A DNA stretch of 20,837 nucleotides. Source: a virus (taxonomy: Duplodnaviria > Heunggongvirae > Uroviricota > Caudoviricetes). Position numbers and translations under genes: made by a program. The notes under the pieces are model-generated. The model did not search any database. It worked only from the letters and a program-made list of their open reading frames with translations, and was not told the origin of the DNA. Shown piece after piece: positions 3,569-4,229 of the stretch; position 1 is the first letter of the stretch; each line of letters starts with the position of its first letter. The DNA is taken from IMG/VR virus record IMGVR_UViG_2537562191_000053; one strand, given 5' to 3'.

Positions 3569-3589
3569 AAAAAAACCACCTTCCGGTGG
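3569..3589 (-). terminator. tR'-like intrinsic terminator (minus strand): CCACC-GGAA-GGTGG followed by seven U
   Basis: Read directly; about 100 nt downstream of the Q-like gene stop, the layout expected for a late promoter and its terminator. Confidence 0.6.
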
Positions 3590-3686
3590 CTTCCTTGTGC
3601 GAAAAAACTTGCATTTCGCCTCGCGATACAGCTTTGCGAAGCTTACAGGAATTCAAGCTGTTTCTGCGTAAAAAAGCAAGCTTTTT

Positions 3687-4229
3687 TTATCGAAATGAAT
3701 CGTGCATAGGTACATAAAGCATGTGTTCAGCCACGGCTAACCAACCTGCAATACGTTTCTCACATGTGCTGAAACACCATTCCGGGTGAGTACGATTTAA
3801 ACATTCTGCCATTTTTCTCTTACTCATTCCCCGTCCTTCGTACCTTTGCCGGAGAATATTGATTAGCCCGGGATATTCCCCAAGCACCTCACTGATAACG
3901 CGATCAATAATCAACGCCTCTGTGTCTGTACAATGTGACAACCAGCTCTTCTGCTTCCCTCTGGTCATATCCCGAAAAAATGCCTCAAGTTCCGGTTTTT
4001 CCAGCCCGGATTTCTTCATGCTGCGTAAAACCTCATTAACTGCTGTTTTCGTCAGCTTTTTCGAAACCAGTAACCGGTTAAACATATTTCCGGATTTACC
4101 CCCACCGATATACGACCACCGCCCCCACATCCGTAATTTCCCCTGGATCCAGACTGCTTCCAGCGTGTTCAGGCGTAAATGTTCGCCGCTTTTGCCTGTA
4201 ATTTCCGGATATATCATATTTACGCTCAC
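3687..4229 (-). CDS. Late-gene antiterminator candidate (Q-like) by synteny; start is GTG at 4229 (overlapping the rusA stop) or ATG at 4217
   Basis: 180-aa ORF directly after rusA and followed by a promoter-like region and strong terminator. Cys/His-rich C-terminal segment (AECLNRTHPEWCFSTCEKR) could bind zinc. Not recognised as a named Q family; function inferred from position. Confidence 0.5.
   Translation of the reverse strand: MSVNMIYPEITGKSGEHLRLNTLEAVWIQGKLRMWGRWSYIGGGKSGNMFNRLLVSKKLTKTAVNEVLRSMKKSGLEKPELEAFFRDMTRGKQKSWLSHCTDTEALIIDRVISEVLGEYPGLINILRQRYEGRGMSKRKMAECLNRTHPEWCFSTCEKRIAGWLAVAEHMLYVPMHDSFR

Follow-up and report, generated by a model that had tools for sequence, protein, structure and literature searches.

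A predicted late-gene control cassette behind a DUF1133 protein in a lambdoid, Stx-phage-like prophage

The DNA analysed here is a stretch of 20,837 nucleotides (nt) from a virus of the Caudoviricetes (IMG/VR record IMGVR_UViG_2537562191_000053), referred to at its full length as the window. It is a lambdoid, Stx-phage-like prophage, matched in Escherichia coli O111:H- 11128 and in many O157:H7 strains. The subject of this study is the switch between a gene resembling those of the Q antiterminators and the late genes that follow it; all features of the switch (the Q-like gene, the promoter boxes, and the terminator) lie on the minus strand. Over the 1.1 kb surrounding the switch, the matches from O111:H- 11128 and O157:H7 are 100% identical to the window. 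The 141-nt interval 3560-3700 is present in 1101 of 5426 complete E. coli genomes, in one to three copies per genome, and is at least 99% identical in 517 of these 1101. An identical interval occurs in prophage Sp9 of strain Sakai; Sakai carries it in both Sp9 and Sp10, and two places in EDL933 match it.

The Q-like gene (3687-4229, minus strand) was assigned from its Pfam match, its RefSeq annotation, and its position between RusA and the late genes. In the RefSeq annotation of 11128, the gene order is DUF968, RusA, DUF1133, an open reading frame (ORF) of 65 amino acids (aa), a DNA methyltransferase, tRNA-Ile, tRNA-Arg, and a SASA-type esterase, followed by holin, lysozyme, lysis protein, and terminase; Pfam scans of the ORFs in the window agree with this order. 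The Q-like gene occupies the canonical Q slot: it closes the nin-type region, follows DUF968 and RusA, and is succeeded on its own strand by the genes for lysis and morphogenesis.

The Q-like ORF (4229-3687) has a GTG start and encodes 180 aa; the RefSeq start is an ATG at 4217, which gives 176 aa, and the stop codon is at 3689-3687. The protein matches Pfam family PF06576 (DUF1133, a domain of unknown function) over its full length, with an E value of 1e-110 and 367 bits. It also matches PF06530 (Phage_antitermQ), with 35.1 bits against a curated cut-off of 26. PF06530 is the family of Q21 and Q933W (Yin et al., bioRxiv 10.1101/651190); the Q of 933W and a 126-aa Q of an Stx2 phage score 171-178 bits against it. 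PF06530 is not the best family for the window protein (367 bits for DUF1133 versus 35), which on these scores appears to lie outside the Q21/Q933W family proper. A search of the PDB with the single sequence gave a weak, collinear match to Q21 (E 0.18). A profile built from 12 family members (38%-76% identity) found the Q21 chains 6jnx and 6p18 with an E value of 7.6e-8; its residues 94-182 align with residues 56-156 of Q21, and an N-terminal W..G.L..WG.W.Y motif aligns collinearly as well. In the reverse direction, the Q21-family protein of phage Stx2_EH2201 scored 19.4 bits on DUF1133, under the cut-off. The PF06530 score above its cut-off, the profile match, and the reverse match indicate that DUF1133 is, at the level of sequence, a distantly related sister family of Q21 that occupies the Q position. 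A sequence-only reading of the window had described the 180-aa protein as Q-like, and both the homology and the canonical Q slot bear this out. Some depositors already label members of DUF1133 "antiterminator" or "late gene regulator"; the significant link between DUF1133 and Q21 is new.

Downstream of the stop codon, three hexamers are found on the minus strand: TTGCTT (hexamer A, 3674-3679), TTGAAT (hexamer B, 3651-3656), and, 5 nt after hexamer B, TAAGCT (hexamer C, 3640-3645). Hexamers A and B are proposed to be the -35 and -10 boxes of a promoter, and hexamer C a -10-like, sigma-dependent pause element that would overlap the start site or lie just past it. The sequence-only reading had pointed to a candidate promoter made of TTGCTT (3679-3674), 17 nt, and TTGAAT (3656-3651). 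These boxes are present as described and are the conserved core of a motif found across the family. Its geometry is fixed in the regions downstream of relatives, which were taken from 33 genomes and 80 viral contigs (IMG/VR): TTGnnn, 17 nt, (C/T)TnAAT, 5 nt, TAnGCT (3679-3640 in the window), with hexamer A, beginning with TTG, exactly 17 nt 5′ of hexamer B in every motif locus, and with a TTnAAT consensus and a conserved G or TG upstream for the latter. When searched as TTG-N20-YTNAAT-N5-TANGCT, the motif has one match in the window, compared with 0.01 expected by chance. It was found once each in 32 of the 44 loci examined, always at or past the 3′ end of the DUF1133 gene, and in 75 of the 80 viral contigs. 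The motif-bearing loci include Erwinia and Pantoea, where the proteins are only 38%-40% identical. The motif is absent from the loci with other Q families, namely those of lambda, 933W, Gifsy-1, and the two Stx2 phages Stx2_EH1910 and Stx2_EH2201. Depending on the lineage, the DUF1133 stop codon lies 5′ of the first box (as in the window), within the first box, or within the second box, and the spacing of the boxes stays constant.

Conservation extends to positions that the search pattern did not force. The G two bases 5′ of hexamer B is invariant, and the base preceding it is usually T. This TG is kept in 23 of 25 distinct loci over nine different amino-acid pairs, and in coding sequence it spans a codon boundary. 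Where the TTG of hexamer A lies inside the Q reading frame (18 distinct loci), it is always the Leu codon TTG. Because TG is kept across nine amino-acid pairs and the leucine is always encoded by TTG, the constraint is on the DNA and not on the protein. A TGn immediately 5′ of a -10 hexamer defines an extended -10 promoter. Hexamer B can be read as a -10 box despite its T at -11 because a TTG stands at exactly 17 nt and because of the extended -10 TG. In every motif locus, hexamer C stands at the same spacing and retains its T, A, and final T; in a -10 hexamer, these are the bases read by sigma region 2. The best reading of the motif would be a -35 box, an extended -10 box, and a lambda-like sigma-dependent pause element, and a -10-like element is indeed present where the first transcribed bases are predicted. 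This family-specific candidate promoter/pause motif, with its unusual -10, is a new observation. Two further conserved features between the boxes, a T located eight bases past the start of box A and an AA-n-TG ahead of box B, are no more than candidates for a Q-binding element.

From the promoter geometry and the terminator, a leader RNA of 76-78 nt is predicted (3569-3646, minus strand), with a start near 3646-3644 and an end in the U-run. In the fold of the 76-nt leader (z -2.5), a single-stranded linker joins a 5′ hairpin to the terminator. The 5′-proximal hairpin, GCUUCGC(11 nt)GCGAGGC (3618-3642, minus strand), lies inside a conserved leader block, GCTTCGCAnAGCTGTATCGCGAGGCG, and is followed by a variable, single-stranded, A/U-rich linker, GAAAUGCAAGUUUUUUCGCAC (3597-3617, minus strand). 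Relatives differ hardly at all in the proposed promoter and the first ∼28 bases of the predicted transcript, and the linker and terminator occur in several alleles. A stem whose 5′ arm begins at the G of hexamer C was found in 28 of 30 distinct loci. It is made of different sequences, GCUUCGC/GCGAGGC in the window, GCUCGG/CUGAGC in most Enterobacter/Klebsiella-type loci, and GCUU/AAGC or AAGU in other leader types. Its mean length is 5.5, compared with 3.85 ± 0.20 in shuffled downstream sequence, and this register scores best; the loci in this comparison are related and hold only ∼8 independent leader variants. The presence of a hairpin starting at its G in nearly all loci, from different sequences, suggests that hexamer C is transcribed and is taken as supporting evidence, not proof.

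Neither the leader RNA nor the interval of the window matches any Rfam family, at the gathering threshold or at E values up to 10. In Sakai Sp9 (NC_002695.2), the predicted RNA would lie at ∼1772431-1772508 on the plus strand; its source sequence is identical in Sakai, EDL933, and the O111 strains. Two known prophage small RNAs (sRNAs) were considered as its identity and ruled out. HnrS is a 66-nt multicopy sRNA of enterohemorrhagic E. coli (EHEC) prophages (EcOnc10-12), and its copy in Sp10 lies between the endopeptidase gene and the terminase region, outside the window; complementarity to the hha ribosome-binding site, the criterion for HnrS, was not found in the window. IsrK belongs to an inserted C4/antirepressor module, and the window contains no isrK. 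The Hfq-bound peak EcOnc49 (Sakai 1772764-1772808, minus strand) maps via Sp9 to ∼3269-3313 of the window on the plus strand, antisense within the 65-aa ORF.

The intrinsic terminator (3569-3600, minus strand) consists of a stem-loop at 3589-3576 and a U7 tract at 3575-3569. Its core is CCACC (3589-3585), the loop GGAA, GGTGG (3580-3576), and T7 (3575-3569), and the stem begins 97 nt past the stop codon. An A-rich run, CACAAGGAAG, 5′ of the stem pairs with the U-run and extends the hairpin. The 40-nt terminator hairpin has a folding energy of -23.6 kcal/mol, compared with -7.5 ± 2.6 for shuffled sequences (z -6.3), and none of 200 shuffles folded as well; for the whole 131-nt interval, z is -5.4. 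The position and stability of the stem confirm the strong terminator that had been noticed about 100 nt past the Q-like gene. The terminator scan listed the hairpin on the plus strand only. Terminator-like sites on the plus strand are at 3432-3444 and 3576-3589. Among relatives, a hairpin and T-run follow the motif in 29 of 30 distinct loci; the GC-rich hairpin starts 24-79 nt after hexamer C and the T-run ends 49-104 nt after it, which predicts RNAs of roughly 50-110 nt. A second terminator-like hairpin with a T-run (3244-3261, minus strand; -10.5 kcal/mol, z -2.8) overlaps the end of the 65-aa ORF. A 13-bp GC-rich hairpin lacking a U-run, GGCUGGUGGGUG...CACCCACCAGCC (∼3222-3190, minus strand; -30.2 kcal/mol, z -5.6), sits between the 65-aa ORF and the methylase gene.

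The genes beyond the terminator belong to a module with a wider distribution. The first downstream gene is the 65-aa ORF (3248-3445, minus strand; RefSeq coding sequence WP_000917750.1), which has a weak TrmB-like match (E 0.004, under the cut-off). It is followed by the DNA methyltransferase gene (2039-3097, minus strand; PF01555, E 1.5e-41, and RefSeq annotation) and the two tRNA genes (1998-1926 and 1842-1769, minus strand). These genes are shared with Stx2_EH1910 and Stx2_EH2201 at 93%-97% identity, up to ∼3543-3577 in the window, and in both phages stx2 follows the tRNAs. Upstream of the shared module, Stx2_EH1910 has a lambda-type Q (PF03589) and Stx2_EH2201 a PF06530 Q, with unrelated leaders. 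All three Q types carry a terminator at the same junction, CCACC/GGTGG in the window versus CCGCC/GGCGG in the two Stx2 phages. Three Q types with unrelated leaders and terminators at one junction indicate that Q gene, leader, and terminator form a separate, Q-specific block. The Q-pR′-tR′ arrangement (antiterminator gene, late promoter, and terminator) that the sequence-only reading had proposed is therefore supported both by this boundary, which the terminator marks in the window, and by the terminators that follow the motif in nearly all distinct relatives.

Insertions next to the Q-like gene are informative as well. Loci L006 and L008 and 48 of the 80 viral contigs have a DUF1133 gene whose stop codon overlaps the TTGACT-N18-TATATT promoter of Rfam isrK. 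There isrK is followed by a C4-type antisense RNA and, in L008, by a 187-aa ORF matching phage antirepressor (ant) genes. This isrK, C4, and antirepressor module, which resembles P1 immI, spans 3055-3930 in L008 and is found in L050-L098 (for example, 3055-3960 in L052). The DUF1133-type motif, leader, and terminator reappear ∼0.85 kb (up to ∼2.1 kb) downstream in 44 of the 48 isrK contigs and in L008, and ahead of the displaced motif stands a sequence, AAAAAAGTT, that looks like a leftover of the Q gene's 3′ end. The inserted module also occurs in Gifsy-1 of Salmonella LT2, where, however, Q (AntQ) is a PF06323 protein with no similarity to the window protein and the module is followed by TTGCAA, 17 nt, TATATT, 5 nt, and TAAATC instead of the DUF1133 motif. 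In Gifsy-1 (L130; NC_010392, 33406-33512, minus strand), isrJ (33480-33406) begins 4 nt past TATATT, and its terminator lies ahead of a tRNA and the lysis genes. The promoter beyond the insertion differs according to the Q family, as expected of a Q-specific late promoter. The module boundary and the insertions are new evidence for a Q-specific late cassette, and IsrJ looks like the pR′-tR′ late-promoter leader RNA of Gifsy-1. The distance of 837 nt between IsrK and IsrJ in LT2 equals that from isrK to the A of TAnGCT in L008; it was not used, as the Q family and promoter of LT2 differ.

Taken together, the interval is probably the late-gene cassette of a lambdoid, Stx-phage-like prophage, made up of Q, pR′, a pause site, and tR′. 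The DUF1133 protein would act as a distant relative of the Q21/Q933W antiterminators. A sigma-70 promoter directly past its stop codon, with a -35 TTGCTT, a 17-nt spacer, and a -10 TTGAAT (with the extended -10 TG in relatives), would start transcription near 3646-3644. Sigma would then re-engage the immediately following -10-like TAAGCT (3645-3640), and the polymerase would pause, as at lambda pR′. When the Q-like protein is absent, transcription would terminate at the hairpin and U7 tract (3589-3569), with release of a 76-78 nt RNA comprising the 5′ hairpin, the single-stranded linker, and the terminator. Once loaded at the pause, the protein would let the polymerase pass this and the next terminators and transcribe the 65-aa ORF, the methylase, the tRNAs, and the lysis genes. 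Such a cassette is a standard, ordinary kind of element, built here around a poorly annotated Q-like family.

The closest parallel in layout is the lambda arrangement of Q, pR′, 6S RNA, and tR′, which has the same gene order, a promoter right after Q, a short terminated transcript made constitutively, and several terminators before the late genes, all of which are found or predicted here. Lambda pR′ reads TTGACT-17-TAAATT-6-AACGAT and the window TTGCTT-17-TTGAAT-5-TAAGCT, almost the same geometry; the three lambda boxes are its -35, its -10, and the box that brings about the sigma-dependent pause where Q loads. The lambda leader is 194 nt long, so that the window leader of ∼76-78 nt is shorter. 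Lambda Q (PF03589) is unrelated in sequence to the DUF1133 protein, and, unlike lambda, the switch has a T at -11 of its proposed -10, an extended -10 TG in relatives, and a 5′ hairpin beginning inside the pause element.

Among the Q families with solved structures, only Q21/Q933W (PF06530; 6jnx, 6p18) shows detectable sequence similarity to the window protein, although the identity to Q21 is very low. Its members occupy the same position in Stx-type prophages, in Stx2_EH2201 ahead of the same downstream module as in the window, and the same function is predicted for the DUF1133 protein. The 933W-type initial transcribed sequence (AAGAGTGGTTACATTGCCAC) and the 12-nt spacing from -10 to pause element are absent from the window. 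StxS, which RNase E processes to a 74-nt form, shows that a pR′-tR′ transcript can be an Hfq-bound regulator (PMC7547250). The sequence-only reading had likened the predicted RNA to such a short regulatory RNA of Stx phages. This holds as an analogy in mode of origin, but not as a relationship, as no sequence similarity was found between the interval of the window and the pR′-tR′ interval of 933W.

IsrJ (RF01393), an RNA of 74 nt that has a Rho-independent terminator, has been detected by experiment (PMC2330248). Like the window leader, it lies downstream of a Q gene and upstream of lysis genes, and it starts 4 nt past TTGCAA-17-TATATT, which is followed by the -10-like TAAATC. It differs in that its sequence has no similarity to the window leader and in that the Q of Gifsy-1 belongs to PF06323 (the Q82 family) and is parted from the promoter by the isrK/antirepressor module. 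IsrK (RF01394) is also a short terminated RNA and stands directly after the DUF1133 Q-like gene in many relatives, but it has its own TTGACT-N18-TATATT promoter, belongs to an immunity-type insertion, and has no counterpart in the window. The covariance models of IsrK and IsrJ have no match in the window at the gathering threshold or at E values up to 10, and both match Gifsy-1. Partial read-through of the terminator has been described for IsrK (PMC4825925).

Several observations weigh against this account of the switch. The proposed -10 has a T and no A at -11, the most conserved promoter position. A consensus promoter scan listed no promoter on the minus strand, hexamer B having T and not A at its second position. 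At the extended -10 position, the window itself has AGc and not TGn. In 933W, the closest relative from a solved family among the sequences examined, the -10-like element lies 12 nt after the -10 and not 5. In a few singleton variants, the 5′ hairpin is disrupted and no compensating change restores it. The list of Hfq peaks in Sakai (the Tree 2014 table) has no entry at the Sp9 or Sp10 leaders, although orphan sites in that screen are peaks >100 nt from a genomic feature, and leaders just past the Q-like gene may be left out. On the side of the protein, a literature search on "DUF1133" returned nothing, and no antitermination experiment on any member was found. An AlphaFold2 model built from 13 close homologues reached a confidence (pLDDT) of only 52, too poor for a comparison of folds. 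AntQ of Gifsy-1 (PMC4825925), considered as experimental support for DUF1133, was withdrawn as such, since it has no similarity to the window protein and belongs to PF06323.

The features of hexamer B leave room for a different assignment within the same cassette, in which TAAGCT (3645-3640) is the real -10, of extended -10 type, transcription starts near 3633, and the RNA is ∼65 nt long. The TTGnnn and TTnAAT boxes would then be protein-binding sites (Q-binding or UP-like), and the pause element would lie downstream, at TATCGC (3628-3623). TTGAAT lacks the A at -11, TAnGCT keeps the three key -10 positions (T, A, and final T) in all loci, TGn precedes it in ∼18 of 30 loci, and the 11-nt gap to the second TA-hexamer would resemble the TATCAT, 12 nt, TACATT of 933W. 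However, no -35 box is conserved at a distance of 16-18 nt from TAAGCT, which in the window also lacks a preceding TG; the TA-hexamers farther downstream do not end in T and lie 8 to 11 nt from hexamer C, depending on the leader type. Nor would this assignment account for the constant 17-nt spacing, the TTG, or the TG around box B, and the hairpin beginning inside TAnGCT would go untranscribed. This assignment is considered unlikely.

It is very improbable that the hairpin and U7 tract are a mere terminator of the early or middle operon, with no promoter in the gap and another role for the motif. The negative promoter scan would fit this explanation, the terminator would also halt read-through from the Q-like gene, and the whole interval can fold as one long stem plus terminator; nevertheless, promoter-like spacing is kept, and the motif follows DUF1133 even past 0.85 kb of other genes with their own terminator. 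The late genes downstream would be left without a Q-controlled promoter, and three Q families each put their own leader and terminator at the same junction. Least probable of all is a free-standing sRNA gene of the IsrK or HnrS kind, transcribed from a constitutive promoter of its own to its own terminator and functionally unrelated to the Q-like protein. The 5′ hairpin, the A/U-rich linker with an ARN-type AAGGAAG, and the U7 terminator are typical of Hfq-dependent sRNAs, and the linker and terminator vary in allelic fashion. Prophage sRNAs are common in EHEC (PMC4104026, PMC7547250, PMC13502914). Against such a gene speak the strict tie to one Q family, with the motif absent beside others, and the location of the strongest conservation in the promoter and first ∼28 transcribed bases, which is not a seed-like region. 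As StxS shows, a regulatory role of the RNA is compatible with the preferred late-gene cassette and does not exclude it.

Other features of the window were noted alongside the switch. A plus-strand ORF (3544-3717; 57 aa, TTG start) overlaps the terminator and promoter and was treated as spurious. Just past the two tRNA genes, Rfam matches to STnc100 (1448-1656, minus strand; 175 bits) and AgvB (1387-1446, plus strand; 56.6 bits, just at the threshold) are convergent. This is the "moron-site" sRNA pair known from EHEC prophages (PMC4104026); in the window, neither stx nor any other cargo gene lies between the tRNAs and the pair. Two inverted IS3-family copies (6548-6664, plus strand, and 17909-18025, minus strand; ALIL frameshift pseudoknot, 121.5 bits each) flank ∼11 kb of the early region of the prophage. 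Between them lie hok/sok (sok at 7552-7727, minus strand) and DicF (14946-14997, plus strand). Only one insertion sequence is annotated in the stretch of O111 11128 examined, so the window differs there. A convergent, overlapping gene pair (8115-9212, plus strand, and 9172-9750, minus strand), annotated in O111 as "beta family protein" and "sce7726 family protein," lies in the early region beside an insertion sequence and is possibly accessory or defence cargo.

A wider proposal can be made from the switch and its relatives. DUF1133 would be a fourth branch of Q-type antiterminators with its own loading site, an atypical extended -10 promoter that lacks an A at -11 and has a pause element overlapping the start. 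The 50-110 nt leaders would be an unannotated family of trans-acting prophage sRNAs in ∼20% of complete E. coli genomes, with up to three copies, their allelic linkers would serve as interchangeable seed regions as in StxS, and IsrJ would be the late-promoter leader of Gifsy-1. As a whole, this proposal is speculative and its truth doubtful. Salmonella IsrJ has a reported effect on invasion.

In Stx-type prophages, the Q/pR′/tR′ module sets the expression level of the late genes and the toxin. Here the downstream module that carries stx2 in other phages stands behind a Q of the DUF1133 type, and for this reason the DUF1133 allele may bear on what drives such modules once they have recombined. 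The predicted 76-78 nt RNA, which lies outside Rfam, is a cheap candidate to look for in existing differential RNA-seq (dRNA-seq), Term-seq, and Hfq data, and the family motif may be used to annotate late promoters. The remote but significant link to the Q21 structures and the family-specific promoter/pause motif would give DUF1133, listed in Pfam as a domain of unknown function, a concrete and testable role as the late-gene antiterminator of many enterobacterial prophages.

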